A DNA stretch of 41,601 nt. It comes from Sphacelaria rigidula. Lineage: Eukaryota. The translations under genes and the position numbers were made by a program. Below, one piece after another: positions 3,722-41,601 of the stretch; position 1 is the first letter of the stretch, and each line of letters begins with the position of its first letter. The notes below the pieces were generated by a model. That model had not been told where the DNA came from. It was given only the letters and a program-made list of their open reading frames with translations, and ran no database searches. The stretch lies in NCBI GenBank assembly GCA_964200075.2, contig CAXNAA020000007.1, positions 1-41,601 of the forward strand, read 5' to 3'.

Positions 3722-3893
3722 GCACTCCGTAAGCCAACGTGATGGCTCCGAAAGAACGATAGGCGAGCTGCGGGGACAACTCGTTCTCAGCCTTGCGGCT
3801 GGTAGTCACACGGCAGCACTTCAGTGGAAAGCGGATGGCAAAAATGGCACGGTACCCTGGTACTCGCTTAGTGGCATCGGTGGTTTTTTTCAG
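3722..3893 (+). CDS. Exon 1 (first in window): beta-rich segment LSLAAGSHTAALQWK
   Basis: caccag| acceptor and CAG|gtagga donor. Joins FFQ|GGEELLVLV in phase 0. Confidence 0.65.
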
Positions 3894-6800
3894 GTAGGAG
3901 AGGGTGGAACGAGCCAGAACGTCTTGAAAAGCGCACGGGTTAATTGTATGAACGAGTTCGGTCGTCCTGAAATTGGTCGCGTTTCTCCTCTGCGTCACCC
4001 CGCAGTACTACATTAATTTCAGAGGTTATCGTATTTTGGAGCATACAGTTCGCCTTTTAGATCCAAGGTCATCATGTAGCCCCGCATCAGAATGTTTTTG
4101 GCTACCGTCAAGTATCCCGCCCTGGCCTCATGTTGCATCAGCGCAAAAGACTTGTATGAAAACATCGCAATTTGGTGTGTGAAGTGATTTTTATTTTGCT
4201 AGAAACTGTTGGCCCTCTGGGGTAGTCTGTATTGATGCATGTACTTATACGAAGATGAGACACGCGTCAACTGGCAGCAAGTGACAAAAGAGTTGTTACT
4301 TATGCTGTGTAGATCATCCTCCCGAGTATGAGCAGCGCGAGGTCCATCCCGGCTCAGCTGTCTCCGCAGTTTCCCCCAATCATGGGTGTCCCTGCGTGTT
4401 TGAAAGATAATATCTCCGTTGCATAACTTCTCAACCATTTCCAGGGAGGCGAAGAGCTCCTGGTTCTCGTAAATGCCGAGAACAATGAACCAGAAGTGGT
4501 GCTTCCGTCTGGTCCGATAGCCATCAATGAAGACGAAGAACTTCACATCACCGGCATACGAGTAGCAGACATCGATATAGAAGTATCTGCCAACTATCAG
4601 CTTGCCGTCAGACTGTCAGTCCAGCAAGGTGTCTTGACTCTCAACACCAGTGACGACCTGTCCTTCAGTGTCGGAGATGGCGTCGAGGACGAGTTGATGT
4701 ACTTCCATGGTCCTGCGGCAAGCGTTTTCGATGCCCTGGGCAAGATAACCTATCGTGGGCATCTGAATTGGTGAGCCAATGGTATGGACGGTTGATTGGT
4801 CCGGCGACTACCATGCCAACACACACGAGTGCGTCTCAAGACGGATCTCATAGCGTTTGCAATGCCTCAGGTCCGATCCGCGCACAGTAATGTATCATTG
4901 AGTAGACGCTCGTCCACGATGTCCTTCCAGGTATGGAAACGACACGCTGACTCTAACGGCTAACGATCAGATGTACCTCGGATCGGGGGAATCCAAGTCT
5001 GATACGAAGCAGGTAAGGGAATATCACAGAGACGAATTGGATCTACCCAATGCTGCGTGAAATGGAGTCGGCGGACAAACCGCGTAGGGCTGCCGTTCTT
5101 GGTGCTGCTTTGCTTGAAGGCATTGCTAAATGGCTCCGTCGTAGCATCGATATCACTGTAGAGACGGAATCCCACCCAACCTGCAAGTAATCTGTTTCCA
5201 CAGGTTGACATAATCGTGGTGTCAGTTCCAGACAGTCCGGAGATCACTCTTCCGGCAAATCCTACCGTGGTGGAAGATAATCACTTGCCTATAAGAGGGT
5301 TGGGGATGTACGATGCCGACGTGTCAAGACCTGGTGATGAGAGCCTTTCCTTCACCATATGGCTTGAAGCCGTAGTGGGACGAATTTCACTGAACAACTC
5401 GGCGGTGAGTTTGTTTTTCAGAATCTATTTTCAATACTACATTCGCTTAGCTTGGATCTTTTTGAGGTACTTTTCGTACATTGTTCGACAGTGCTTCCAA
5501 ACGGTTTGGCACTGCCCTCTTCTTAGTGTGCGTTCGTCTCCGCCCCCATCGTCGATCCGCACTAGGGGTTGATTTTCAGTCGCGGAAACGGATCAAATGA
5601 CCGCGCCATGGTCTTTACAGGAAACTTATCGAGTATCAACACAGCTGTCGGTCTTCTCACCTACACGCCACACCTGAACTTCAACAGCGTGCAACACGTG
5701 GAAGCGCTTACAGTTGCAATATGGCAAGTGGCATCCAGTGAAACCAAGGTGCGAACGTGGCCCAAATGAAGTATCTGTGCTTGTCCTCAGGCACCCTCAC
5801 TAACCGTCAAGTGGTAGATTGTCCCCGAATATTTTTCATAAGGGCGCCTTCGCGCTTGCCTGTCGTGGTATGTACTGAAGTATGGAGTGTTGGGTGGTAG
5901 ACCTCCCCTCTTTGTACATGAAATACTTACTCTTGATTCCAGACAGTATTACACAACGTACAGTACGGGATGGAGGCTATTTATGCAAGGGTGGCGGCTG
6001 GCTGATAAAAAAACAGAACCTATTTGATCGTCCACGAAATCAATACTTCATTCCGATGACTCAAGTAGGTGATGCAGTAGGTTGAATACAGTAGGTCAAA
6101 CCACGGATGTGCGGTTGACCAAATTAAACATGGATAATTTTACGTCTTGAGGTTCGTGTTTCCGTTCCGGTGTTGGCATCGTAGGTCCAGCAAGTGCTCC
6201 CTGTAACGGTGGATGCTGTCAATGATTCTCCGAGGATCGTTGTGCCACATCATCGCCTCTTGAAGTTTGGCGATTTCGAGGTTTTGAGCGGACTCTCAAC
6301 TACCCGACTTTTGCCAGCGACAACCGAGGGCAACCTCACGGTATTAATATCGACAGACACCGCCCCAGGGCGGGTGATACTACGTGGCACAGGCTCGAGC
6401 AACGACATCATCGAGGTAAAGGTGTTTCGAACCCGGGTCAAGCTATTTTGCCAATACAGCATAGTAGCTTTCTCACCCGTGAGGCCAGGCTTAACGTAGG
6501 TTAGAACGGGCGCTCACTGACCACGCCAAATTGCGGTAATGTTATGTGACTCACCAATGCTACACTCTGCGTGCATAAAACGCATGGATGCGCACACATA
6601 CAGGCGTACGTTTTGAGGACGGACAGAGACGAGCTACTACGCATCAAGTCGCCGATCTTCCAAGCAAGTAGAATCGCCTTATTGAATGGAAGCACAGAAA
6701 TGACACAGGAACTTTCCTAGCCGAGTTTAAGTGATCATCGCTGCAAAGTGCGCTACAGAATCTACTGGCAGCCCGACCCGCGAATCGTTTCCCTTGACTC

Positions 6801-9800
6801 TCACTAACGGGCGATGTTATCATTGTTATTGCATCCTTGCTGAAGGGGGTAACAGACGCAGTTTCCGGGATGGAGATAATACTCGAGGGTAGCGCCGAGG
6901 AAGTGACGACTCAGCTTGAGCGATCGGAGCTACTCTACATTCGCAGTCCAGGATACAGTGGTGCCGATACGATCCAGGTACCAGTAGTAACAGAGTCTGC
7001 TTTGCTACTACGCGACCTCAAGTCGGCGCTTAGCTCGGCATTTAATCCTACATACGCAATAGTGGGTCACTCTTGTTTTTTTGGATGACGTAGACGGCAG
7101 CGTATTCCCGCGATTGATTAGATTGTTTAGGGCTATATCGCCATCCTCTTGCTCTAGTTCAATCTCTTACGCACTCTTGGAAGCACATGTACATTCCAGA
7201 AACCATGCGTCGAAAACACCTGGGTTCGTGGCACGTTACTGTCTTCATCCGTCTTAGGGGCTTGTTATCGTAGTGAATACACGGAGTTACAGTACACCGT
7301 GTGGTACAGCTTGACATTCGTATTTTGTGGACAGCCCGGGTAAAGGAGATGATTGTCCTTTACATACCAATGCTGTTGCGACGATTCTCGAGGTGCAGGT
7401 CAGGGTTAAGGACGGAACAGCTGCCGGTTCGGAGCACTCTATTTTCGAGGTTTCCTTCCTTTACACGAGCGAAGGCCACAGCAAATTTCAGCCTCCGACG
7501 ATCGTATCGATCAAGCCCAATCAGATAAGCTCTAGCGGAGGAGATATGGTTAAAGTTGTTGGTACATCGTTGGATTCATTGTTCAATGCTTCAACAATTC
7601 ATGTACAGTTTGGATCCGGGGAGTCAGCGATCGGTGAGATCGTGAGCGACACAGAGATAATATTCAAAGCTCCGCCTTTCTTGCCGAGGAGCCCCTCGGC
7701 AGAGGGCACTCACGGGTATTTTGTATTGGTACGAGTTACCAACCTTGTGGACTTTTGGAGTAATGCAGTTCAGCTGTTTGTTGAACCTTCAGCCGCGGTG
7801 TTTTCTATATTCCCGGATGCCGGTCCCGCGTGTGGAGGAACAACTGTGTCAGTTGAAGGAAAAGGGTTTGCGCCTTCAGTCTCTCTGGCATGCATATTTG
7901 GCAAAGGGGAAGACGCCGTTACAGTCCATGCTGACTGGCGTAGTCCTCAAGTGGTGCAATGCGTTGCACCGCCTTGGCCACTCTCACGTGAGGAAGAAGA
8001 GGTGGTCGTTCCACTCGCTGTGGCCAACAGTGAGGCAACATCGCCGTTTTTCTTCCGATTCACGGCGCCAGTTGTCGTTACGACGATCTCACCAGCAACT
8101 GGTCCTGCGGAGAGTGGAGCCAATGTAAGCGTTAATGGCGTCAACTTCAACCGATACGACCTCGCGTGTGTCGTAGGGAGCAACGAGGTACCAGCTATAG
8201 TTGAAAGTGACAACCTTCTGCGGTGTATCCTTCCACCGGGTGGTGTACCACCCCAGCGTTACTTCAAGATTGAGGTGGTGGCGAACAGGAAGTATGCAAT
8301 TGCCGGAGTCGATGCGACTAACACATCAAATCAAAGCTTGGATGCTGTGGGCGAAACCCACGAAAAATCTGGCTCAACGTCGGTGGTACTTCCGCTAGTG
8401 CGTGGCCACCAATATTGGCTGGATCAAACGGATGAGTCGAACCTCGATCATCCTATTGCCCTCTCCCCCAGCCCTGAGGGAACAAGTGCAGCTGGCGCAG
8501 AAATGTGGACCAAGGGGGTCCAACACCTTTCGTCGCTAACTCCCTCGGCGCCCTACAAAAAATCCAAGGGCTCGACAGGGGCCGGTGTGCTTAGCTTCAC
8601 CGTTCCGTTGGATGCTCCAGATGTATTATACTTGGTTTCTGATAAACATGCGGTTATCCACAGTGACGTTCAGGCGGTCATCACGGATGGAGTCGTCAAC
8701 ACCTCAATTACGGTTGTGGCGGCTTTTGGCTCGTTTTGCGACCCTCAACCAAGTCCGTTCAGGTGTGTAAGGTCGGTGCCTAAACGTAATAGGGGGTCGC
8801 GCTATCTGTAGGATGAAGTAGAGGTTTAAAGCCCTACTTTCTTTATCCAGTGGAACCTTGTTTTAATGGGATGCTTTTGGACGCTCTAAATTCACGCCAT
8901 CGCCTATGCAAGTTACCAGGGGATACAGGTACACGATGGATGGAGCTACCAATATCCGCTTTTTAAACCTTTCTATCTCTTTTGAGATGTGTTTTGCACG
9001 TAGTCTGCTATGAAGCCTCACAGTATGTAGCCGCACGCTCCGTCCTCCTTCCTATGTTTGTAACGTGCAGATACAGTTTTTTCGCAGTTCGCTCTGCAAT
9101 TTCGACAGCTGGAGGACTACGAGCGACTTTGATAGGCGAAGGATTTCAAAACACGACGCAGTTGGGGTGCAGGTTCGATACCAACGACCCGGTTCCGGCG
9201 GTGTTCTTGTCGTCTACGGAGATCAGCTGTCCTACACCAGACTTCTCCGTGGACGTGACAGCCGTCGTGGTGGAGGCTACTGTCAACGGGATAGATTTTT
9301 CAGCCGACGGTACGTTGTTCACATTTGCTAATCAACCGTTTGTCATATCTCTTCAACCCACAGCTGGACCCATGAGTGGTGGCACATCGGTGCTGTTGTC
9401 TGGGGCACATTTCTTGGATTCCCAGGAGCTTGGTTGCAACTTCGGAGCATCGTTAGTGCCTGCGCGGTGGTTGTCTGAGACCCTCGTACAATGCGAGTCT
9501 CCTTCATGGCCCACACATGGCACCACACTTGTGGAAATTACTATAAATGGACGCGACTTCACGTCTGACCGCCAGACATTCTCCTTCCATCGCAACAGCG
9601 TTCTTGAAGTCGTCCCTTCAACCATTCCCACGAACGGTAATTATCTGCTCTCAATTATTGGGGAAGGGTTCGTTTTCTCTAGCGACTACTTCGTTCGCAT
9701 GGGAGATGCGGAAATCGAGGCGACATTCGTCAGCTCGTCTCAGCTAGAGTGCGTCGCACCGCAAGTCGCTGAGGCCGGCGAGGTGGATGTCTCTGTGATC

Positions 9801-12800
9801 AGTGACGGTGTTAACTTCGGAGGTGTCTCCGGTGTCATGTTGACGTACACTAAACCACTTTCAATTGCCTACATTGAACCCCGGTGGGGTCTACAAAGTA
9901 AAGGAGCAATCATCGTCTTACAAGGAAACGGTTTCACAAACACAACACAGCTCACCTGTTACTTCGGTCGTCATCGACTAGCATTGGCGACCGTCTTCAT
10001 ATCGGAGAGTAATGTCTCCTGCACCGTTCCTGCCGGAACCGCGCGCGGTGTTCACTCGATCGAGATAGCTGCAGATGGGGTAGAGTTCACGGCAAGCAGA
10101 ATGCCGTTTGCTGTGGTTGGAGAACCGACCATACTCTCCGTTAGTCCCATAAGTGGGCCACACTCGGGAGGTACAGCGGTGCGGGTAAAGGGCGTCGATA
10201 TTGGCAACAGTTTTGGACTCGGATGCTTGTTTGGAGCGACAGCCGTAGTTGGGCGCTGGGAGTCGTCGACAAGCATGTGGTGCACCACACCTACGGGGAA
10301 CGAAGGTGATCGCGTGAGCATCGCAATAACACTGGATGGGTTCCCCTACTCTTTTTCATCCCTAAATTTCCACTTCTGGGACAGTCACTCACGCCAGTGT
10401 GCATCAGGTGTATATCCAAGTGAGCACGCCATCGGCGACGCTTTCCGGAAAGTATACCCGGGTGCCTCGATCGGATCAGATGGGAGCTTTGACTCCGGTT
10501 TCGATGCTCAAGCACGAGGACAGGAAATATGGAACAAGTACAATGGCACTTCCCCCGGTTGCATCTCCACAGGATCTCAAGGGCTATCGCACGAAGAAAG
10601 GGCCATGTGTGAAACTCGAGGGAGAGAAACAAATATTACTACTGAAAACACCGCAATGCAGTTCGGTGACCTTCGAGTCGGTGGTGATGACGTTGACTCA
10701 GCTGTCGTCGACATACCGACTGTGATGCTGCGAATATCTCCTAACTATGGATCCCAAGACGGCGGAACAAATGTTCTTGTGATTGGAGCAATGTTTGTCG
10801 ACTCAGATCGTCTGGCATGCAGATTTGGAGAATCCCAAGTCCCTGGGCGCTGGCTTTCTCCAGTAACCCTGTCATGTACCTCGCCTCCTGGGAAAGGAAA
10901 CACCACGGTGGTTGTCGACGTGATATCAAATGGCGTGGCTTCCGTTTCAAGGCCCGTCTTTTTTCGGTATCAGGCAACTCCAACGGCTACAGAGTTGCGT
11001 CCGTCCTTTGGGTGGGTGCAAGGTGGCACCCTTGTTTCCATCCATGGCGACAACTTTGAGTTTTCGGGCAGTCTCACCGCTCGGTTTGGACGCACGAGTG
11101 TTCCGGTGACTTTTGTTAGTCCCACCGAGCTAAGAACTACTTCGCCGAGTTATTTTTCCGGAAGCGTTGATGTTTCCGTCGGCAATCGCGAAGGATTATT
11201 CTTCGGAGGGTTGGACTTCGTGTATAGTGAAGCACCCAGTATAGTCCTGCTATATCCGTCCAGCGGTAGCACCGCCGGGGGATTTGAAGTTAAGGTTCGA
11301 GGGCAAGGCTTTGTCAACAGCGGTACACTGGCCTGTAGATTCGGTTACACCAGCGTTGTGCCAGCCGTCTTTATCTCAGATGAAGAGATGAAGTGTATCG
11401 CTCCTCCTGCGGCGGAGCTTGGGCGAGTAGGAGTCGAAATTACAGCCAACGCCGTTGACTATACGTCATATGGTAACTATTTCACCTACACGTTAGCCCC
11501 AGTCTTACTTTTTGCCACCCCCGATAGTGGCAGTGCAAGCGGTGGCACTGTGGTTTTGTTGGAGGGGGTCAACTTTGTGCATTCCCAGGGGCTGATGTGC
11601 AAGTTTGGGGAGTCAACGGTCGCGGGGCAGTGGATTTCTCCAACTTTGATCCAATGTATTTCCCCTGCCGGCACGGAAAATACTATCAGCACCCTGGTCA
11701 TCACCTACGGCGCGGGGCACGAAACCGTCGGAAAGCTCGACTTTTACTACTACCGCCAGCCCATCCTCGAGCGCATCTCACCGACTCATGGTCATGCCAT
11801 GGGCAGAAGGGGCCTCTCCATCTTTGGGAAGCAATTTTCGTTTTCTGGTGATACTCGTGTCCGGTTTGGATCGACGGGCGTTCCGGCTACTTTCGTTAGT
11901 CCCTCCGAGCTGCGGTGTGTTGCACCACCTTTGTCGCCAGGATCGTTTCACGTGTCAATTTCCTTCAACGGTATTGACTTCACGGAGGAACAAGGTGCGT
12001 ACGTGTATACCGTTCAACCAATGGTTACTGATATGAGTTCTTCGAGGACTGCTCTAGGAGGACCATCTTATACCAACGCCAGCGTGAGCAGCTCAACGAA
12101 TGTACCCAGGCGTTCGTGTGTGTCCGGTGAAGGCCATGGGAATACAGGGTCTCTGTTTGGTGGGGAGTTTGTGTGTGCAGTTCATGAAGCGCCAACAAGC
12201 GGCGTATCATCCGGCGGTGTGACGTCAAATGACCGTACGTATGCTGCCGGAAGGTACACCTTCAACAAAAGAGGGAACCCGTACGTGTCGTCTGCATACC
12301 CAAACGCTGGTCCGTATTCAGGTGGAACTTCAGTGCTTGTTGGTGGATATAATTTTCAGGATGTGAAAGGGCTTCGGTGCCTGTTCGGTTTGCAATCTGT
12401 TTCTACGCACTGGGTGTCCTCCACTCAAGTAAGGTGCGTATCGCCTCCCGTGCGGAACGCTCGGGTGGTGAGACTTGTGCTTGTAGTCGAAGGGAGCGAG
12501 GAGTATCTCGCTGGAACTCCATTTTCTTACTACACAGAACCTGTGGTTTCAAGTTTATCTCCGATCGAAGGATCCAGTGAGGGAGGAACCGTTGTGAGCC
12601 TAGTGGGTGCCAACTTCACGTTCACGACAAAGCTTAAAGCAATGTTCGGGTTGATGGATGTACCCGTTACGTTCCTCAACTCTTCGCTGCTACGCTGTGT
12701 CACGAAGGCGTCACCAGTAACTAATGCCGAGGTTAGTATCGGTATCAATGGAAGGGACTACAAGCCGTTCAATGGGCTCAGCTATTCATTTCGCTCTGGT

Positions 12801-30800: not shown

Positions 30801-33800
30801 TTTGTATAACGTGGGGATCCAATTTTCGTGTTACATGACTTCGCCGTTCACCATGTTCTGTCTGCCAGATAACATGCACGGATGACGAAATAGGACAGGG
30901 GACTTGCGGAGATACCCCGATCGCTGAGAGGATGTGGAACCCGTGTTATAGCGCTGAGGTGTGCATTCGATACCATAAGCAGGCTTGCGGACAGAAGTGA
31001 TGGGCCTGACGACGCTCTCGATCACAAATGGTATCCGTGCTCGATGCCCAGCATGCACAAATCGATTCGAGACAATACTTGGACGGAAGCACATGGAAAC
31101 CGATCATGGCTCCTTTTCTGCTACACCTTACGCCGTATTCGACAGATGCCTGAAACGTAATCCGATACTTCGCCGATACTTCGCCCCCCTGATTATCTCC
31201 CCACTTCCCCCCGACCAGATACGAATTGATGTCACCGTTTCTGGCACAGTGTTCAGCGGCGATGGCCTGTACTACGGCCACTCGACGCTGCCTGCCGACC
31301 TCGCTGAGGATAATTTCATGGACTACGTGGTGGGCGCCACTTCTACTACATACACACTCATTCGGCAGGTGATTTAGTTGTTTCTTTGCCTTCGACGAGA
31401 CAAGCCTCGTATTGACGCACGGCAATTTTATTTCCTCACCCCCGGGTAATGACGCTGTTTCTATCGTCGGTAACCCTCACACTGAACCCCTCCAAAAATA
31501 CTACTAGGACTACTGGCTCAATGACACCGGGATGGTGGACATGGACACCCGAGCTTGCAGTGTGTGGAGAATCAGCGAGGAGAGCGAGCGAGAGCGTGAA
31601 TATGGATGGTTCCTTCTCCAGGCACTGCAAACAGCAAAGATTTCATACGACCTGTCGCACTTGCCGTCGAGCATGGTGAGGTTATTAGTCGCATGGGTCG
31701 AGACATGCCCCCTATCACAACGCAAGTTGTGGATAAACACCATGGGTGATCACCGATGCACCTATGAGCGTTTGGGATAAGGACAACACTAGTTGCCATC
31801 GTGTGCGGGCAAGACTGCACGTTGAAGGCGGATGTGTTGACGCTCCTGAGCTTTTGTTGCCGTCACATACACAAAATTCAGGTGTACGATGAGCACTACA
31901 AGTTGGCCGTTTATGTCACGCCTAGTAGATGTGACGACGAGGTCTGTAACTCCGCGCGAGTACGACTGCCGGCGGAGGAGACGCTGCCATGCCGCCAGCC
32001 ACTGAACATGCCCCCCGGCTTCCTAGATTCAACGGTCCCGAAGAATCAGACGCTTAATTTCACAGTGTTTGCTCTTGAGGATGTCCTCGTGAAGGTGAGC
32101 TCAAGGCGGTGCAGGGTATTGAAAAAAATACTCGAAATTGGTCAGGTTTCGTTCGTTCTGAACAATGCTAAGCCGCGCGTGTCGCCAATCGCCCCTGTGT
32201 CGCGTGTGCACGCTAGGCGGAAGTTCACATTATGCACGGGCTGTACACGCCGTCAGCAGCGTTCTTCAAAAACACAACGACATTGCACAAGATTTCACCT
32301 GGCAGGGCGAAGACGCTTATGGGAACTGTCCCAGATAGCACTTTGAAATATAGCCGCAAGCTGAACCCATACGTGTCCTTCGAGGAGCGGGCAGTAGCCA
32401 AGGTCAGACTGCACAGTAAAGTTTGTCCGGGGGAACAAATCACCAGGAAACGCTGGCTACTCATCTGTGCTACGCTACGCCAGTTCCGTTCACTTATGTT
32501 CCTTGCCGACGGTTTGCCTTCCACTTGATTTTACCAGGAATACTTCTTCGTTGCCTACGTCAAGGAACTTACCATGCACTCAATATCGGCACCTCTCAAT
32601 ATGCCACCCCGGTATACGGACTTCGCGAGAGGGCGCGTGCTGATGGGATTCAATACATCAAGCCAGAACGTAGCCACACCATGGCTAAAAGATGACACTG
32701 CCGACGTTGCGATAGCAAGCGACTACTGGGACAACCCGGCAGCATCTGATGAGCTGGGCAAGGAACTCAAAGATACATTCCATGAGGTGTGCAGTTATCG
32801 AATTTCATTATGTCCCTAGGCCTCTGCGAAATCATGGCGAAGCGAGTATGACCACCGCGGGCTCTACATTGCTGTAAACGGCGGTGTCCAGCTTGTTTTC
32901 TCAAACAGCACATCATTTTCTGTCGTGAGTACTTCAGCCCTCTCTTCGCGAACATTGCCGTACCCCCTGGAATACCGTACAAGCCATAGACATCGGTATT
33001 GAGTTGAGGGTACTTGGAGATTCTGATGCGATCCGATAAACAGCGTACTCCGCCTCGTCTCGACGACGCACTCTCAGGTGTTCGATGAATTCAGTACTGT
33101 GGAAGGATCTCCGATATACAGCTTCACGCAAATGATGCTGCCGTACATGCCGTACTTTTCGAACTGCCGAGGGTTCGACTCGCACATTCCCGTGTATGCT
33201 CTTGTGGAGAGTAGCCAGTGCTCACTTCCGGATGACCAGTCCTCAGACTGGTGGAGGTGAGGTGACCGCCCGGCTTTGATAGCTGACAACTGGGAATCAC
33301 GTTGAGCAGCCTGAATTGTTGATCACTAAGCAACTAGTGTTGTCGTGTCTGCCCCAGGTATGCTCACCCTGTTTTCCCTCACGAAGACGACGTCGTTCAT
33401 GTGGGACCTTGGGACGTTGGACAGATGCCAATAGCCGACTGGTGCACCTACTCCATCGAATGTCAATACGAGGTAGGCGGTGCACGTTGGTCGTGAGTTA
33501 TGCGTTTTCTTGAAGCCTTCAGTTCTTACCGACGCTTCGCATGCATGCCAGTCACCCGCTGTATTCTCTCCACCTTCATGCTGTCAAAACGTAGCCCCAA
33601 CTTTTTGCGGTACAGTGCTGATCACGAAGTATCAATCGACAACTTCGTGACATTTTCCAGGAAGAGCTGGAAAGTGTCGACATAACTCCACGTTGGTTTG
33701 AGGCTGCAACGGGGGACGCAATATTCTACTTCATCCGCGAATCAATAACGTGGCAGGTATGCTGTTGCAGAGATTCTTGATGCCATTGCGTTGCTGCACC

Positions 33801-36800
33801 ATCGCTGTCATATCAGTGGGATTATCGACAAGTTGCGCCGTAATTGACCCAGTTCTAGTGCTGTGTAAAACTTGACGATGATATATATGCAACACGATCG
33901 TAGTTATGCGCACCACTTTTTTTTTGCCGTGATGCTTTCAATCCCGCCCCTCTCTCGGGACGTGGACCTGTCTGTGCTCCCTAGGGATCAACCCATATTT
34001 TTTTCTCCGCCGGTACATACCCGAAATGTTGGTATCGTGGATCGGATGAGCACTACCGTACCGTCTCGATTTTCGTGAGCTTGTTTAAGCTATTCACGTC
34101 GTCATATTTTCATCTACGGAAATCATATTCTTTCCAGAAAACACCCGTATTTGTCAGGATTAGAACCCTCGAACTTCATTCATGGACCCTCGGAGCGTGG
34201 CCATACACTAATTATTTTTTTGTCGCACTTTGAACCGCTCCCCTTCCTCGGAACGAGTTCGTGGTCTCAAGGGATCTTCCCACCTCTCCCCCGGTACACA
34301 CGCCTTGCATTTTGGTCTCGCGGATAGGGTTAGCACTCCCGCACCGCGTCAACTCACGTCAAACAAACTCAGTCGACTACTTTGTTTACTCATGTTCTCA
34401 TGCTTTCCACGATGGATCTCAGATACTACGAAGAAAACTCCCTACGCCGACTCTCGTTCCCTCCACCCTAATGGCGACAGTCGGACCATTATACCACCGG
34501 GGCGCGGCAATGTAACCAACCAACTAAAAAACTTCGGCGTATCCGAAAGCCCGTGCGGGCGGTGTTTCGCTGCCGAAATACTCTATTCAGTCTAAACCCC
34601 AGTCGATGACTGTTGAAAAGCCTTGTGACTGTGCCTCGTATATATTCTGTGCACTTTGAAGGACTTCACCGGAAGAGATGCAACTCGAGTTGGCTACTAC
34701 GACAGGGGGACTGGAGCCAAAATTACTTCTTTGAGTACTGAACAAGGATCGGACGTGTTTGTACCCGTCTCGGTCGATCGCAAGGCCGCTAACACCTTCA
34801 GCGGTGGCTGCACAGATCTATGTTATCCAAGAACGATGACTTTGACCATCAGCTACTTCCAGTTGGACACCCAAACAAAGCGCATCATTGATGCCAAGTT
34901 GATTTACGAGGACTTCGACAAGGATCCTTCTATCTCCGATTACACCTTAAACATCGTATACTATCCTTTGGACTATTGGGACCTAATCATCAAATTCGCC
35001 TTTGAAAGGGCGGTCTTCATAGCGCTCTTCATGGTGATTGGCTTCACGTCGGTGCTCGTGGCAGCGCTGTACTGGGTGACTGTCCGCCTCACCACACAGG
35101 TACGCAATGGGGGTGCGGTTGGTGTTGCGGAGTATGCTCATACTATCTATTTGTCCTATATCGAGGGTGCACGCGATCGCACGGCAATCTAGCGGGGGAG
35201 GCGGTTACGACACGGACACCGCTCTGCGCCCATCTTGTTTGTCGGTTGTTTGCTTCTCTCCTTGACTTGCAACTTGTGCGATGTTCCCCAGTTGCGTTCC
35301 TGACTATGTTTACTTTGTGCGCGGATTCCTTTTCTTTCTTACTTTTCGGGTGTTCATGCTTTCTTCCTTTCTCCCTCTCCCTTCCTCCCTCTCTTCCTCT
35401 TGTTCTGTGTTTGGTTTGGTTTGGTTCTGTCATATTCTGCTGCTGCTGCTGCTACTACTGGCGCCGTTGTTGTTGTTGTTGTTGTTGTTGTTGTGGCTGT
35501 TGTTGTTGCTGTTGTTGCTGTTGCTGTTGCTGTTGTTGTTGTTGTTGTCGTTGTCGTTGTCATCGTCGTCATCTTTTTTTTTCTTCATTATTCTCACCTC
35601 ACGGTGTTCCCTCCTTCTTCATCTTCCTCCTCCTCGAGTTCCTTTAGCTTGGGGTACGTCTGTCTTTATCACCATAGCTGGATTCGTAGCGGAACAGTAA
35701 GTTCGTGTGTGCCAATGAATCAATTAATCTGTACGAAGAATTGTTTGTAGGGATGTGTGCCGACGTAGACTATTTTCATCGTACCATAGTAGTGCAGTCT
35801 CGAAAGACTTGCTACAAAAAAAGCATGAGCTGGTAAGATGTAGTGTGTTGTCTATGGTACGATTGGTCGGGCACTGGTGAGAACGAGATAGATCTTGACC
35901 CGACACGTAACACTTGTCGACAATGCCCAACGGGTTCGTGTCGACGACGTTGAAGAAGTACGTTTCCAGCAGCCAAGTAGCAAGTAGTCTGAATTGGAGG
36001 GATTGAATTAAATCGAACTTCTTGAACCTGGACACCACACTCTTGGACTATTGGCACGTGTTCAGGAGTTGGCTCTTCAAATGGTTTCTCAAACGTCGCA
36101 TGCCATGCCGTCTTTACACTTCGCGAGAATGTTGCCCATGTCTATATTGTAAACGTCGAACAGCTGGTGAATCCCTCCCGCCTGCACTTCTGGAGTATGT
36201 TCAGCCTCATTGCTCCGCCGGCATTCTCGGGTACACTGCTGGGGTTGGTACCCGTTGTCGTTATGACGTTGGCCATCTGGGTGCTGTTATATGGACCGCC
36301 ATTCGTCGATACCGAGGATTGGATCTTGGATAGTTACAAGCTGCACTATATGGACACGGCGGTGGATCCCGACAACAAAGAGAAAGCGAGGTGAAGAAGT
36401 GAACAAGTCGTCCACCTCGTCGACCCGACCCAAACCTGTGTATGCGCGTGATCATCACAGGGCACAGGGGGCAACCTTTTGTACGTAGAGCGACGAATTG
36501 GGCGTGCCCTATGAGATCTTTCAGCTCAGCGTGTAGGTACCAAGGTTGTTTCTTACACCCACACATTGGACTGAAGAAATGGAGGAGCAGCATTAATGTC
36601 ACGTTCTCCGTTTTTCAACACCTCAGGTGCGGGCGGCTTGGCGTGGGCTTCGTCACAGTGAGTGTGGTGTGCATATGGCAAGGTGCACGTATATTCTTGC
36701 CAGATCGTCAGACAAAACGCTCCAGGGAAATGGAGATAAAACGAGATGCAAGGGCAGAGAAGGAACAGGTGCGTGGCTGGCCTATGACGGCCGCACTGTG

Positions 36801-39800
36801 ACTCAAGGTGACACTCTCGTCTTAGATGAACTGCCAGTATTCCCGACACAATAAACATGGAGTAAGATGCTAGTGGAAAGTGTAGCCTGATCGAAGCCGG
36901 CTGTGACCCACACGGGTGGGCAGACACAGCTCGTTGGGCCACGTCATCGTGTGCCCAAGCGTTCACCACATTACGCACCCATTCATCACAGGTGTGGATC
37001 GCCCTAACCTGGCGACGGAGCAACATGGTGTTCTCCTCGTACGCAATGGGTCTGTTCGGTCTTTTCATTATCGAGTTCTCCCTGTGGAATAACTTTGGCA
37101 ACTACATTTGGTACGTGTCGATCGGCTTCACCGTCTTGGACATGTTCATCGGCGATATTGTCAGCTATCAGCTGAAGGAGGTGCGTACAATTGGAGGAGA
37201 GGTTGAATTTTAGTCGTCTGTTCAATGCCCGCTGTACTCTTGTCACCACCATGCGCTGGAGTGGACTTGTAACTTCCTTTTCCGGACATGTTTTTGGCGT
37301 CGGTCACACCATCGCACCTGCAGGTCCTCCTGGAAGCTCCTGTCGGGACTGGCCTGGGTACAGTTATTGGAATCACTGGGATGGGAGCCAACGACTTCAT
37401 GGACTTCTTGCTGTCGTATTTCGTTGACCTCGGGCTCATCATGCTCTTCCGGGTCAACATTGACCCCGCTCTGGGTGACATCTTGGACGCGATCGGTGGA
37501 CTGTAAGTGCGAAACTGTGGGGGTTTACGTGTACTTCTATTGCGTTGCCTTTTTTGGAAACGAGATGTCGCCCAATGTGTCGATATTGGCTAGAGAGGTG
37601 CTCCGTGAGGGAAAACCTCGTCCCAGCTGGCGACCGATTTTGGGCCCCCTTATCGGAAAGATCCGCGGAGCGCAAAAAGTAGACAGGTATCCGGATATAT
37701 GGCTATCCGACTGTCCGGAGCATCAAAACTATCGACGGATGAGGACTGGAACCAAGGGAACATGCTCTTTGGCGCTACCCAAATGGATGTGCGCGCTTGC
37801 GGCTGGTGTTTCAGAACATGACTTAGCTTTCACGTACAAAAGCTGCCACAATACCCCTGGCCCGCTGACCTATCCTCCTTCCAGTCACGAAAAATGTGCC
37901 TGGGGTCCTTGCGGTGTGTGTGTGTGTGTCTTCACCGGGATGTTGGGCGCTGACTCATACTTTTCGGGGACTGCGTTGGGCATTTATTGTGCTGGTAGGT
38001 CTTGACGCCGGGAACCACCAAGGCACCTACATCTCTCAACGCTCGTGTGAAATGGAATTGTGGACAACAACATTAAATGGAGCGCGATAGCTTCGGCAAA
38101 ATAGTTGGTGTGCCCTCACTTTCAAGGATATCCAAGCAGGCGCCAGGCTGATACCAGCCTAGCACACCTTCGACTTTGGGGTTCGCCCTCCAGGGTATCG
38201 CGCCAAAAGCGAAAACTGAGATTATGTGGTTCACTTGTCTACCGATGATTAGATCACCAACGTTGCTGCCCTCTTCATTGTAGGAGAGCCTACACGACTA
38301 CCCTTACTGCTAGCCTTGCCAAGGCTGGAGGGGCTGGGGTGTATAATTGGGCAGCAGGTTCTCCGGATGGAGGACTGCGCGTCAGGCGGATAACGACTTG
38401 CCGACGGAAAATCCTTATCCGAATAAGAATGGATTTCTCTGCGATCTTATATTTCGGAGCAGATTAGGATCGAGCTCTTTCGGGGCAGATATCCAGATAA
38501 GGGATTGTTTTATGAAAAACAAGAGCGACTCGAGAAACAATATGGCTTGCTTAAACCGATTCTGCTCGTTGTCACTCCTTTTATGTCCAGATTAATTCAC
38601 ACAGCACGCAAGAACTAGAGATGAACGTCACAAACCACGGCGAATATTAACCCTCACCTCGAAGGTGTTCTCACGTTTATGAAGAGATACACGGCGTGCG
38701 ACACAAAGCTCGATAGCCCACAGCGTAGCTCTCAATCAGCCTGGTTATTGCGTGGTTGGCGTTGTGTCAATCGGCCGTGAACTGAAGTAGCGTTGTCTGT
38801 GTTCGGACAATTACGTCATGCTGACGGTTTGGTGAAAGGGCAACTCAAAAAACTTGGGCGCATATTCCTGTTGCTTGCCCAATATCGCACCAACGCCACC
38901 TGAAAGCATTTCCTCATACTGCGGTGAACCATGGTTGCTGTACCTCTAAAGTTGCCAGGCGTCTAGCGTGAGTATCTGTAGATGACTGGACATGTCTTGA
39001 AATGTTGAGCATCCACTCTAACGGTAGCGCATTGTGTTGTGTTGTCGTCCCATCTATTCTGGACGCCGGGCTACACCTTTCGGTATATGTGGGCGCACCA
39101 GCCGGGGTCACACAGGAGGAAGGTCAACACAGGAGTTTTTCTTTGTTTTGTTTTGTTTGAGTACTCCATCTTCCTTGTGCGGTGCTTGCCTTTTACTTTT
39201 ATCGCGTGAGGGGTTCAGCAATCCCTTTCCTTCGTCGACCGTGAAGTCGAATTTTGTGTACCCACGACATAGTCGCTCTCCACTGGTGGGCATGAGAAAA
39301 AATCCCAGATCGCTCCGAGATTCGAACCCGCGACCCAACCGTCAGAAGGTGTCGAGCTTACCAACTGAGCTACGGGGGCGACCGGCATTGCATCCATGTG
39401 ACTATACACGGAGCACGGAGTTTCTTTTCTATTGGCATGTGATTGTTTGCGCAATTAGGTCCCGCCTTAACTAGACAAGAAAAATGAGGAGGAAATGATG
39501 ATAATGGCAATAACATGACGGTTCACAACATCATAATCATGACGAATCAAGCGTCATCCCTATCGATGCGAAAAAACAATCAGAACGATAACATGACGAC
39601 ACGCGAACAGTGGTTACTGCTCATGGGAAAGCCAGCTGCGCACCACATGATGATCCAAACAGCTCAAGCGTGTCAACCATTGACGCCCCCTTGCGCATTC
39701 TCAACGGATTGTTCTTCCGTTCTCACTTTTTTAAATTCCCAAATGATTAATTTTGATGGGAGTGGTTCCAGGGGCGATGAAAATAGCGCATCAGCCTTCA

Positions 39801-40489
39801 ATCAATCAGAAGGACAAAAGAGAAACGATACTGAAACCGCCAGAATCATTCTGCTCCTCACGATGCGTTCTCATGGTCTTCGTCTGATCAAGGCGGGGTC
39901 TAATCAAGAAAATGATGAAGCCATCTAGAAGCAGGAATGACGCGCACGTATCACAACGATGGGGGTTGTCTCGCGGCATTTACTCGCGACCCAAATATTT
40001 TGATGAGACAGCCTACAAGACGGAGCAGAACACATCTCTACAATTGGTTGCCAATCACGTTCATGTCACTGGTCCTCTTTATTCTGCCCTTGTCATACAG
40101 GTATCAATCTGCGAAGGATTCCACTAAAAACCGGATGCCAATCTGGTTGGCGGCACGCCTCGCAGTGACACAAGATGGCCCCAATGCGATTGCAACTCCT
40201 ACCAAGTAAGATCACCTCCGGCATGATATATATTTTAAATGTTTCCGTTTGGCGTATGCTGGTCCCCACGTGTTGTAGGGTTTGGGTTTTGATACCATGT
40301 GTTTCTACTTCGCTTCCCGTTGTCATGTTATTCGTCACCAACAGGGGGAGCGGGCAAGAAGATTTGGTTGGAGAGGGAGCTGAGACCGTGGAGCCCATTC
40401 TTAATTCTTTTGGTGGATACTCTACAGACAATCTGAGCAATTTCTACTTCCCCTACATCATTGTCCTTCTGATGATATTTCGGGAACAG
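3722..40489 (+). CDS. Giant multi-exon multipass membrane protein, partial at both ends: cadherin-like x3, IPT/TIG x about 60, Cys-rich GCC2_GCC3/ephrin-receptor-like repeats, at least 7-8 TM; about 8,170 aa within the window
   Basis: 31 exons join in one continuous frame: 3722-3893, 4445-4770, 4931-5012, 5204-5404, 5566-5748, 6185-6415, 6846-6977, 7399-8762, 9071-24761, 25014-26046, 26595-27895, 28293-28469, 29028-29156, 29792-29944, 30174-30635, 30869-30958, 31219-31368, 31508-31675, 31882-32094, 32217-32402, 32538-32786, 33078-33256, 33358-33472, 33661-33756, 34662-35099, 36164-36390, 36627-36768, 36992-37180, 37324-37502, 40101-40205, 40345-40489. Domains continue across junctions (LNW|YGND, PFR|YSF, TYVQ|VSND, VCPG|FGL). 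No start or stop codon lies within the model. Confidence 0.85.
4445..4770 (+). CDS. Exon 2: cadherin-like repeat 1
   Basis: tttccag| and TG|gtgagc. Encodes VNAENNEPEVVLP...INED...ITYRGHLNW. Confidence 0.85.
4931..5012 (+). CDS. Exon 3: end of cadherin-like repeat 1
   Basis: cttccag|G TAT GGA AAC GAC completes W-YGNDTLTLTAND. Donor CAG|gtaagg. Confidence 0.85.
5204..5404 (+). CDS. Exon 4: cadherin-like repeat 2, first half
   Basis: ccacag| and GCG|gtgagt. Encodes VDIIVVSVPDSPEITLP...VVED. Confidence 0.85.
5566..5748 (+). CDS. Exon 5: cadherin-like repeat 2, second half
   Basis: actag| and AAG|gtgcga. Encodes LTYTPHLNFN. Confidence 0.82.
6185..6415 (+). CDS. Exon 6: cadherin-like repeat 3, first half
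   Basis: cgtag| (alternative in-frame cag at 6190) and GAG|gtaaag. Encodes PVTVDAVNDSPRI. Confidence 0.8.
6846..6977 (+). CDS. Exon 7: cadherin-like repeat 3, second half
   Basis: tgaag| (AAG acceptor, less certain) and CAG|gtacca. Encodes LLYIRSPGYSGADTIQ. Confidence 0.7.
7399..8762 (+). CDS. Exon 8: three IPT/TIG domains, the third with a cupredoxin-like insertion
   Basis: Lies in ORF 7327..8811. gtgcag| acceptor (exact site uncertain) and AG|gtgtgt donor. Confidence 0.85.
9071..24761 (+). CDS. Exon 9: giant 15,691-nt exon, about 55 tandem IPT/TIG domains
   Basis: Lies in the stop-free ORF 8982..24800. Repeats P.(I/V)..(I/V).P..G...GGT.V.I.G..F...L.C.FG...A...S....C..P...V..NG.DF....F.Y. 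Acceptor gtgcag|A TAC, donor CAG|gtacga. Confidence 0.92.
25014..26046 (+). CDS. Exon 10: last IPT/TIG domains of the array and first Cys-rich repeat
   Basis: gcatag|GTG AGC AAC GAC and CCC G|gtaagg. Confidence 0.9.
26302..26355. repeat. Perfect 27-nt tandem duplication (intronic)
   Basis: gtcagtattttgccccacctgcattct occurs twice in tandem. Confidence 0.95.
26595..27895 (+). CDS. Exon 11: Cys-rich CPxGxxC repeats (GCC2_GCC3/ephrin-receptor-like)
   Basis: ccacag|GG and AAT|gtaagc. About 19 C(P)xG(Y/F/H/T)xC-type motifs. Confidence 0.9.
28293..28469 (+). CDS. Exon 12: Cys-rich repeats
   Basis: tctgcag| and CAG|gttcgt. Encodes CPAGYNC, CPAGLFC, CDAGYYC. Confidence 0.88.
28521..28900. repeat. 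Diverged direct duplication of about 180-200 nt (intronic)
   Basis: Units 28521-28717 and 28727-28900 share, in order, ctgaagagaaca, tcatcaat, gaggtcgac, gctcagac, cagaccagagct and agccagtga..agacc. Confidence 0.8.
29028..29156 (+). CDS. Exon 13: last Cys-rich repeat
   Basis: tcgcag| and GCG|gtgagc. Encodes NKCPVGYYCPVGT. Confidence 0.85.
29792..29944 (+). CDS. Exon 14
   Basis: tttgcag| and CAG|gtgcgt. Encodes VDVCDK...TGEVQ. Confidence 0.8.
30174..30635 (+). CDS. Exon 15: isolated IPT/TIG domain with Cys-rich insert
   Basis: ttttccag| and CTG|gtgagg. Encodes CPEYGP...ITIIGRNF...LACRF...VECPAP. Confidence 0.85.
30869..30958 (+). CDS. Exon 16 (not in the ORF track): ITCTDDEIGQGTCGDTPIAERMWNPCYSAE
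   Basis: ctgccag| and GAG|gtgtgc. 90 nt, phase 0/0, Cys-rich like its neighbours. Confidence 0.65.
31219..31368 (+). CDS. Exon 17
   Basis: Pyrimidine tract with gaccag| and CAG|gtgatt. IRIDVTVSGTVFS completes the split IPT domain. Confidence 0.78.
31508..31675 (+). CDS. Exon 18
   Basis: tactag| and ATG|gtgagg. Encodes DYWLND...EYGWFLL...YDLSHLP. Confidence 0.78.
31882..32094 (+). CDS. Exon 19
   Basis: attcag| and AAG|gtgagc. Encodes VYDEHYKLAVYVTPSRC...FALEDVLVK. Confidence 0.82.
32217..32402 (+). CDS. Exon 20
   Basis: cgctag| and AAG|gtcaga. Encodes AEVHIMHGLY...YVSFEE. Confidence 0.8.
32538..32786 (+). CDS. Exon 21
   Basis: taccag| and GAG|gtgtgc. Encodes EYFF...PLNMPPRY...DTFHE. Confidence 0.8.
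33078..33256 (+). CDS. Exon 22
   Basis: tctcag| and AG|gtgagg. Encodes LPYMPYFSNCRGFDSHIP. Confidence 0.83.
33358..33472 (+). CDS. Exon 23
   Basis: ccccag|G and GAG|gtaggc. Encodes YAHPVFP...PIADWC...CQYE. Confidence 0.78.
33661..33756 (+). CDS. Exon 24
   Basis: ttttccag| and CAG|gtatgc. Encodes EELESVDITPRWFE...FYFIRE. Confidence 0.78.
33915..34205 (-). mobile_element. Possible degenerate SINE-like insertion
   Basis: B-box-like GGTTCTAATCC on the - strand (34157-34167) and a T-run at the other end (an A-tail on the - strand). The A box is unclear. Confidence 0.35.
34212..34508 (-). mobile_element. SINE-like element related to the 39033-39385 copy
   Basis: Core cttgc...tcgcg...gggtt(c)agca.tccc...cgtc.ac and end tac(cac)cggggcg..ggc resemble 39185-39240 and 39370-39386. 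A T-run marks the tail. Confidence 0.5.
34662..35099 (+). CDS. Exon 25: end of ectodomain and first TM helix
   Basis: tttgaag| (AAG acceptor) and CAG|gtacgc. Encodes AVFIALFMVIGFTSVLVAALYWVTV. Confidence 0.82.
35437..35571. repeat. Compound trinucleotide microsatellite (CTG)n/(GTT,GCT,GTC)n, intronic
   Basis: Directly visible. It generates spurious poly-C/L/V/T ORFs. Confidence 0.95.
36164..36390 (+). CDS. Exon 26: TM region
   Basis: gaacag| and AG|gtgaag. Encodes LLGLVPVVVMTLAIWVLLYG. Confidence 0.8.
36627..36768 (+). CDS. Exon 27: TM helix and charged loop
   Basis: cctcag|G and CAG|gtgcgt. Encodes GRLGVGFVTVSVVCIWQGARIFLP. Confidence 0.8.
36992..37180 (+). CDS. Exon 28: two TM helices
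   Basis: tcacag| and GAG|gtgcgt. Encodes WRRSNMVF...IIEFSLW...YIWYVSIGF. Confidence 0.82.
37324..37502 (+). CDS. Exon 29: TM region
   Basis: cctgcag| and CT|gtaagt. Encodes GMGANDFMDFLLSYFVDLGLIMLFRVNIDP. Confidence 0.82.
39033..39385 (-). mobile_element. tRNA-derived SINE
   Basis: The - strand head has A box TAGCTCAGTTGG (39372-39361) and B box GGTTCGAATC (39328-39319), then a body and an (ACAAC)n tail. cattg flanks both ends (39030-34 and 39386-90), a possible target-site duplication. Confidence 0.75.
40101..40205 (+). CDS. Exon 30: loop
   Basis: atacag|G and AA|gtaaga. Phase 2/2, compatible with both neighbours. Confidence 0.7.
40345..40489 (+). CDS. Exon 31 (last in window): ETVEPIL... 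plus TM helix, with a GC donor
   Basis: caacag|G and CAG|gcaagt. Encodes FYFPYIIVLLMIFRE. Confidence 0.72.
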
Positions 40490-41601
40490 GCAAGTGTTGC
40501 GTGTGTTGATCGTGTTGATCGTGTTATTCATGGCCCTAGAAAATATCCAGCTGCATCCATGACAATTAACCTTCGGTGGGGTGTCGGTGTGTGTTGAGTC
40601 CTGCTTAGATTTATGGGTCGATTTATGGGTTGCAGGTGGGATCGATCGGTATCACTCACAAGAGCTGTGAGAGTTGTGAGCGTTTTTGGAGATCTTTCTG
40701 ATCTCATTTCAATGGCTCCTGCTTACCGGTGTAATTTCGTTCGGTGAACTTTCGGGAGTATACACTCCTGCAGGGTTTCCACTCGAAGCAAAGTTAAAAG
40801 TTGTGTTCTAGCACTTGCTCGTTGGGATCTACCACCTCTGCAGAATGAACAGACCGGAATGTAACAGAGGTGCATGATATACTTCCGGTATGTGCGACTA
40901 TCATATCCAACGGCTCCGAGTGGAAGCGTTTACGGGTTTATAGTGCCTGCCAACTAGATGTCGACTTGCCGTTGGAATTTTTTATTCTAAACATGCAGAC
41001 ACGGTATTGGTAATTGTTTCTACTACGAGCTGGGCCAGCAGCAAATCCCGCATTTGCATGTCACACAATAACACATCAATTTTACCAAATCACCCCGACT
41101 TGAGTATATCGGTGTGATCTGCAGACCAACGTGGTAACGTACGGGACCGCCGCTGAATGAAGAAAAAAAATGTGAAAAAATGTACTGCACAATGTATCAC
41201 CTAACCAACGGAACTAAAAATAGGAATCCCTCGGGATTTGAACTCCTGCCCTCCATAACTGGAGTCAACGGCATCACTTGGGTTATTGAAGCGCAGCCGT
41301 GCCGCACGAAAGGTTGGATGCTGCGCCAATGTTCTGGACTTTTTGGCCGAAATTGTACCAGGATCTCCTCCACCACACAAGGACGCACAAATACACTAGG
41401 GATGCCCCCGTATTCCTTTTTTTCCACGGAGTTGTGGCCTTTTGTCAGTTTTTGCAAAAACTTCAAATCGACACTTTCTACGATAGCCCCCCCCCCCAGA
41501 ACCAGCTAAAAGTGTCACGAAAAAAATGGCCATACAGCGCCTGGTGTTCGGGTTCAGGCTGCATGAAGCGCCTCATATTGGCGACATTGGCTAGAATGAA
41601 C

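Follow-up and report, generated by a model that had tools for sequence, protein, structure and literature searches.

What kind of gene contains an open frame of 5,277 codons in a brown alga, and what might its product do at the cell surface? The question is raised by a stretch of 41,601 nucleotides (nt) from Sphacelaria rigidula (GenBank assembly GCA_964200075.2, contig CAXNAA020000007.1, positions 1 to 41,601 of the forward strand), hereafter called the window, which is eukaryotic DNA with a G+C content of about 52%. The open frame lies at 8967-24797 and forms the core of the locus. The nearest named protein is a partial product of the brown alga Choristocarpus tenellus (P0002), which shares 68% identity with the open reading frame (ORF) at 34629-35189. 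On the gene model and the comparisons given below, the locus is a single, genuine gene of very large size in a brown alga, and it encodes a cell-surface protein in which an array of IPT/TIG domains is joined to a multipass membrane module. The final model consists of 31 phase-compatible exons on the + strand (3722-40489; 24,643 nt, 8,214 codons). Exon number, outer limits and the 18 C-terminal exons are the same as in a preliminary description of this DNA, and the length of the frame, then put at about 8,170 amino acids (aa) and open at both ends, agrees within 1%.

The coding frame of the model contains no stop codon, where the two remaining frames have 320 and 336, and all 30 internal introns are of the GT..AG type. 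The donor leaving exon 31 (40489; 40489-40495) is GC, with CAG followed across the boundary by GCAAGT; it is non-canonical and resembles the consensus start of a GC-AG intron. A pseudogene was considered and rejected, since 8,214 codons are read without a stop and the C-terminal part is 69% identical to the Choristocarpus protein. The 5' exons were obtained with a dynamic programme for codon usage and splice sites, trained on the giant exon; the exons from 29792 to about 40489 were obtained by spliced protein-to-DNA alignment guided by P0002, which gave the 18 clean C-terminal exons. Exons 10-14 were fixed by spliced alignment to P0041, P0042, P0028 and P0071. Exons 1-8 are backed in outline by spliced alignment to P0060 and P0067, and their limits are provisional, being drawn from codon statistics and weak homologues. 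Two exon models were discarded: the initial dynamic-programme model skipped small exons, and a second one, in which homology was rewarded, made exons too long and introduced false introns within the giant exon. Both were replaced by the protein-guided spliced alignment.

Both gene ends are open in the window, and the missing parts are seen in relatives. Judged by P0060, about 460 aa (a signal peptide and beta-rich modules) would lie 5' of position 3722; at the 3' side about 470 aa are absent, because residues 1165-1634 of P0002 have no counterpart before the window end. With these parts, which are seen only in relatives, the whole protein is estimated at about 9,100 aa.

The rod and stalk are encoded upstream of the junction between exons 13 and 14, and the membrane-proximal region downstream of it; here the question of one gene or two arises. 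The locus might be read as two adjacent genes or as a mis-joined model, in either case with a multipass protein encoded separately behind a TIG protein that is secreted or anchored. Exactly at this intron, the Choristocarpus annotation falls into two records: P0041 (6,015 aa) ends at the equivalent of exon 13, and P0002, itself partial, starts at the equivalent of exon 14. The joined transcript model of the window is moreover derived from DNA alone. However, the longest contigs of the two Choristocarpus records differ (33,488 and 15,634 bp), so the split probably arose in the assembly. In the window, the two parts are separated by an in-phase GT-AG intron of 635 nt (29157-29791), which is too short for an intergenic region. 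The junction is also spanned by single ORFs and transcripts in relatives. A metagenome locus (L010) has an uninterrupted ORF of 5,187 aa with 20 TIG stretches, the Ephrin_rec_like domain and the whole membrane module. Comparison of the membrane part of P0002 with longer proteins gave 25 matches of 3,015-4,963 aa, including records from Triparma, Aphanomyces, Phytophthora, Pythium and Ectocarpus; all 25 carry TIG and nine carry Ephrin_rec_like. TIG units and module are likewise found together in Trinity transcripts of Cantina (P0139 and, by hidden Markov model (HMM), its cluster mate P0220), in a Trinity transcript of Gymnodinium (P0219) and in a gene model of Bigelowiella (P0179). By comparison with these relatives, the TIG array and the membrane module are assigned to one gene, and the two-gene alternative is very improbable. 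For the window itself, it is the phase-compatible exon chain alone that argues for a single polypeptide.

The ectodomain can be followed from its tip inward. Exon 1 (3722-3938, aa 1-72) encodes the end of a beta-sandwich-like module, matched by tblastn to residues 462-527 of P0060 with 53% identity; its frame is open from an AG acceptor, and P0060 has a signal peptide and three such beta modules upstream. Exons 2-7 (4445-7061; 4445-4770, 4931-5012, 5204-5404, 5566-5748, 6185-6421 and 6846-7061) encode three cadherin-like repeats of about 132 aa, each starting with a motif of the V-x-V-N/P-D/E-S/E-P-x-I/V type. These were assigned from the dynamic programme, the P0067 and P0060 spliced alignments and the alignment of the repeats. 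Matches of the window exons to the Pfam family Cadherin_4 (PF17803) have E values of 0.019 and 0.027, and their scores (15.9 and 15.4 bits) are below the cut-off of 25.1; the homologue P0067 passes this cut-off with 28.6 bits. The third repeat ends in exon 8 (7399-8762), which also encodes the first three IPT/TIG units (HMM units at aa 520-800; three Pfam stretches, E 3.7e-31) and a linker. The giant exon 9 (9071-24761; 15,691 nt, about 5,230 codons), recognised by its open frame, Pfam TIG and the HMM, carries 52 units. The last three units of the array (Pfam TIG, E 1.3e-38) are in exon 10 (25014-26046), together with the start of the Cys-rich block.

Pfam TIG (PF01833) found 49 stretches in the window (3+24+19+3), with scores of 785.9, 646.5, 131.3 and 107.4 bits against a cut-off of 20.9, which places them within the family. 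The HMM trained on the protein's own repeats counted 59 units, namely 58 in the array (aa 520-6455) and one at aa 7125-7230. No DNA-level repeats of at least 40 nt were found inside the giant exon, and the TIG units are therefore old and diverged. At about 4 nm per Ig-like domain, the rod would be about 200 nm long.

The Cys-rich block continues in exons 11-13 (26595-29156; 26595-27895, 28293-28469 and 29028-29156), where ephrin-receptor-like repeats were assigned from Pfam and spliced alignments. The block contains 51 Cys and 19 CxxGxxC motifs in 605 aa, and Ephrin_rec_like (PF07699, GCC2_GCC3 type) was matched in two stretches of the ORF at 26459-27949 with 30.5 bits, above the cut-off of 23.1. 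A conserved juxtamembrane ectodomain of about 800 aa is encoded by exons 14-24 and the beginning of exon 25 (29792-34994); it opens with the 59th TIG unit, and this unit carries insertions. The juxtamembrane domain gave only chance-level Pfam matches at E values up to 10 and no match in sequence and profile searches of the Protein Data Bank (PDB), and a Foldseek search of its model against the PDB gave nothing at E 0.001 or better.

The membrane module starts in the rest of exon 25 and continues through exons 26-31 (34995-40489; exons 26-31 at 36164-36390, 36627-36768, 36992-37180, 37324-37502, 40101-40205 and 40345-40489). Based on hydrophobicity, model helices and the P0002 alignment, eight helices (TM0-TM7, 35007-40477) are predicted in this part, and three more 3' of the window. 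The preliminary description had proposed one giant multipass surface protein with a cadherin-like part, about 60 IPT/TIG units, Cys-rich repeats and at least 7-8 transmembrane segments; all of these were recovered, the cadherin-like part with a Pfam score below the cut-off in the window exons, and relatives carry the array and the module in single ORFs or transcripts.

A structural lead for the module comes from an AlphaFold2 model of the homologous region L008:1560-3491, which was built on a 32-row alignment and has a mean pLDDT of 71.8 and a pTM of 0.72. It shows eleven long helices. In the fold search this model aligned best with TMEM16/OSCA/TMEM63 structures, and in the rows of this superfamily the aligned range begins at model residue 49-57, just past the first helix, which indicates one extra N-terminal helix. 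OSCA1.2 is described with eleven helices, TM0 plus TM1-TM10 (PMC6235563). Eleven helices with the N-terminus outside would fit a giant ectodomain. The module probably has the fold of the TMEM16/OSCA/TMEM63/TMC superfamily (TCS) of channels and scramblases and may resemble known channels gated by force or by calcium; this assignment is moderately supported. There are also differences. Pfam and PDB profile searches detected no sequence similarity between the module and the TCS proteins, and the large cytosolic domain between helices 2 and 3 of OSCA is lacking in the module of the window family. No TCS member is known to carry a large ectodomain.

The cytosolic tail lies outside the window. In the tail of P0002 (about residues 1420-1634), three similar amphipathic segments and a CxxC...CxxC pair were noticed by eye, which might be putative calmodulin- or zinc-binding sites. 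In eight of the 11 environmental relatives (L001-L007 and L009), the reading frame changes across an interruption of about 50-100 nt at the same place, near P0002 residue 1487; the interruption is probably one conserved short intron and is absent from L008, L010 and L011.

How could such an ectodomain and such a module work together? We tentatively favour a tethered surface sensor whose rod acts on a channel- or scramblase-like membrane module. The protein would be placed at the surface with its N-terminus outside the cell. From the tip inward there would follow the beta-sandwich modules, the three cadherin-like repeats, the rod of 58 IPT/TIG domains, the Cys-rich ephrin-receptor-like stalk, the juxtamembrane domain, the peripheral helix TM0, a ten-helix module and the cytosolic tail. 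Contact with the long ectodomain, or a pull on it, would be relayed through the juxtamembrane domain to the membrane module, which might then open an ion path or a lipid path and so start a cellular response. Both the gating by a tether and the cellular role are inferred from this layout. A mechanosensory receptor had already been suggested in the preliminary description; the idea is now somewhat better founded by the best alignments of the module model, and it is still an inference.

Several observations weigh against the favoured sensor. The window holds only eight of the 11 helices, and the structural model is that of a homologue and not of the window protein; the mapping of the helices relies on 143 identical residues of 375 aligned (38%). 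The Foldseek search of the module model against the PDB gave nothing (best E 0.06, TM-score 0.12). Pfam searches of six module sequences at E values up to 10 gave no Anoctamin, RSN1_7TM or TMC match, only two chance-level matches of single sequences, to Cas5fv_helical and Comm, and sequence and profile searches of the PDB with the module gave no match (profile E up to 10). Residues of about 300-795 in the juxtamembrane model are without an assigned fold. The ESM Atlas search of the module reached best values of 0.76-0.78, below the trustworthy level, for unnamed membrane-protein clusters of oomycetes and green algae; PF28488 is present on 33% of the members of one of these clusters, and the Pfam scan did not report it.

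The breadth of the family was assessed with a module profile built from six metagenome-locus sequences (alignment A3), which was searched against 1.84 billion representatives. It matched 1,347 cluster representatives (50% identity) at E 0.001 or better, including 399 at E 1e-30 or better. Among the 20 clusters looked up were Cantina marsupialis, Pythium brassicae, Bigelowiella natans (Rhizaria), the dinoflagellate Gymnodinium smaydae, Odontella aurita and the jakobid Andalucia godoyi, whose record cites a hypothetical protein of Guillardia. All descriptive names in these clusters were 'hypothetical' or 'uncharacterized'. Pfam TIG was present in four of the five organism-named proteins scanned (P0179, P0219, P0160 and P0139; not P0134). 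Further unnamed relatives are found in Triparma laevis (TL16_g04487, P0005, 4,563 aa), Aphanomyces stellatus (Aste57867_20988, P0016), Phytophthora cactorum ('Immunoglobulin E-set', P0018) and Cyclotella atomus (ACHAXN_011176, P0051), and relatives from the environment (P0042, P0048 and P0050) reach 7,656-7,895 aa. These protist proteins, including those of B. natans (P0179) and A. godoyi (P0160), show the same order of TIG array, Cys-rich block, conserved ectodomain, 11-helix module and tail. The comparison places the window gene in a widespread, old protist family of giant TIG-plus-multipass proteins.

The preliminary description had not recognised this exact combination as a characterised family. 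This stands in so far as no characterised member was found; however, the combination is not peculiar to the locus, for besides the many cluster representatives, five public proteins of 7,340-7,895 aa (P0042, P0048, P0050, P0043 and P0086) pair 52-65 TIG units with the module. The architecture is thus already in the databases, and the window protein is an unusually long new member of an existing, unstudied family; at 8,214 aa it is the longest among those compared, though incomplete. A full-length match to a characterised protein, which the preliminary description had named as evidence against its view, was not found, and the proteins with the same architecture are uncharacterised. In the literature on TIG proteins and cysteine-repeat modular proteins (CRMPs) in brown algae, diatoms, Phytophthora and stramenopiles, no paper describing this family was found; in the accessible part of the preprint 10.1101/2022.05.19.492674 only counts of PF01833 in Chaetoceros genomes are mentioned.

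Conservation differs along the protein. The ectodomain-plus-membrane part shares 69% identity with Choristocarpus P0002 over 1,167 aa, and the TIG/Cys-rich part shares 43% with P0041 over the 2,565 aa of the best local alignment; the membrane-proximal region is therefore better conserved than the rod. With 39 other members it shares 30-41% identity over 863-1,343 aa. Among the relatives, only P0060, P0067 and P0072 showed a cadherin-like N-terminal part. Giant-exon ORFs from ten other assemblies (P0030-P0039) are 5,146-5,266 aa long, colinear and 38-81% identical, and each contains 52-55 TIG units. This suggests that the rod length may be under constraint, with the unit number kept while the sequence drifts. 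The partial records P0007 and P0056 come from Ectocarpus fasciculatus; P0007 is 42% identical to the C-terminal part of the window protein, against 69% for Choristocarpus P0002, so that two or more paralogues of the family are probably present in brown algae.

These patterns bear on another reading of function, in which the protein is a structural adhesin or a wall or matrix tether. Through the rod, the plasma membrane would be connected to the cell wall, the mucilage or a partner cell; the multipass module would do no more than anchor the protein strongly or provide a base for its oligomerisation, with no part in transport or signalling. IPT/TIG, cadherin-like and Cys-rich repeats are typical adhesion modules, and the steady TIG number of the ten orthologous ORFs suggests a length requirement. 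However, a single helix would suffice as an anchor, whereas here distant lineages share a conserved membrane module together with its cytosolic loops, and 41 columns are invariant in 32 sequences. The better conservation of the membrane-proximal region also speaks against a tether, and the module is retained while the number of TIG units (by HMM) ranges from 4 to 65 across the lineages of its bearers. Because the module is conserved across supergroups while the rod varies, a receptor with the membrane module as its business end fits better than a mere anchor, and the purely structural role seems unlikely.

The known proteins that resemble the favoured sensor in layout were also compared. The resemblance to the alveolate CRMPs, which the preliminary description had pointed out, holds for the Cys-rich domain type common to both and is limited to that level. 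In published descriptions, CRMPs have their N-terminus outside and carry Cys-rich repeats of the ephrin-receptor-like type ahead of a conserved multipass core at the C-terminus (PMC9815656, PMC9670195). They differ in having Kringle, lectin or MAR domains and in their reported number of nine (or five) helices, and no IPT/TIG array is among the domains named for them in the accessible parts of these two papers. Nevertheless, the window protein might be the free-living-protist counterpart of a CRMP-type receptor. Once its ectodomain sensed a contact, the multipass core, which might act as a dimer, would set off the regulated exocytosis of extrusomes, adhesive vesicles or wall vesicles and would not itself conduct ions. 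The same membrane fold would also be compatible with this role. CRMPs, with Dictyostelium homologues, are reported to combine Ephrin-receptor-like/EGF-like Cys-rich domains with a conserved core of nine transmembrane helices (PMC9815656), and the discharge of rhoptries or mucocysts in Toxoplasma and Tetrahymena depends on them (PMC9670195). A multipass core adjoined by Cys-rich repeats of this Pfam type is also present in the window, and the family includes an alveolate member, the Gymnodinium protein P0219. However, the likeness consists of the Cys-rich domain type and the layout, the membrane cores being set side by side by description only. CRMPs are reported with nine helices (five in Tetrahymena) against 11 here, and no CRMP name occurred among the 20 clusters. 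An exocytosis trigger of this type is therefore a rather doubtful alternative.

The comparisons with polycystin-1, fibrocystin and plexins fared less well. Polycystin-1 and fibrocystin are likewise membrane proteins that bear many Ig-like domains in a row, and polycystin-1 has 11 helices with the N-terminus outside. The window ORFs, P0002, P0003 and the module and ectodomain alignments gave no Pfam match to REJ, GPS/GAIN, PLAT or PKD_channel, nor to G8 or PbH1. The polycystin-1 layout suggested in the preliminary description is without sequence support, as only the TIG-type and Cys-rich Pfam families were matched. The fold search of the module model points to TMEM16/OSCA instead, and the absence of polycystin-1 from its listing carries little weight by itself. 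Fibrocystin is a single-pass protein, whereas the window protein is multipass, and the Fibrocystin-L proteins gave weak matches through TIG units only, covering 6-21% of the query. For plexins, the Sema, PSI and cytoplasmic GAP domains had no Pfam match in the window ORFs, P0002 and P0003, and the TIG_plexin matches are generic TIG overlaps. At the level of Pfam domains, all three comparisons fail on the defining domains.

The tethered sensor can be carried further into the past, although this step is speculative and quite unlikely to hold in full. The family might descend from an early-eukaryote mechanosensor of one chain, in which a rod of about 60 Ig domains with cadherin-like tips, about 200 nm long, is covalently placed on an OSCA/TMEM63/TMC-like pore. 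A pull on the rod would directly open the ion or lipid path, and the span of the idea would include stramenopiles, alveolates, rhizarians and jakobids. It would be the 'tip link plus transduction channel' layout of animal hair cells in a single polypeptide. CRMPs could be reduced descendants of such a protein.

Outside the coding part of the gene, a frame-broken fragment of a copia-type LTR retrotransposon gag/pol lies at 616-2851 on the - strand (Pfam Retrotran_gag_2, E 7.1e-9; Pol_BBD, E 8e-11), and it may sit in the 5' intron or the flank of the gene. The introns contain some repeats. A perfect 27-nt tandem of two copies (26302-26355) follows exon 10, and a 184-nt tandem duplication (28563-28900; 1.9 copies, 75% matches) follows exon 12. 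The 1,064-nt intron after exon 25 has a GTT/GCT trinucleotide microsatellite (35416-35560) with about 16 copies of a 6-nt unit. In the longest intron (37503-40100; 2,598 nt), the segment at about 39296-39439 translates like a tRNA-gene-derived element; no tRNA or SINE was found in this 2.6-kb intron by ARAGORN or Rfam.

It is the fold lead for the membrane module that makes the locus worth following. If the module is a channel or scramblase of the TMEM16/OSCA/TMC type, this family would be the first known to join a module of that kind to an extracellular tether of great length, and direct tether-mediated gating could then be tested in one protein. If the family is related to CRMPs, it would offer a concrete hypothesis for the conserved multipass core of these medically important proteins. 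The family is large, with its 1,347 cluster representatives at 50% identity, and extends over oomycete pathogens, diatoms, brown algae, a dinoflagellate, a chlorarachniophyte and a jakobid. For the brown algae, the protein is a candidate for the sensing of contact with the cell wall, the substratum or gametes.

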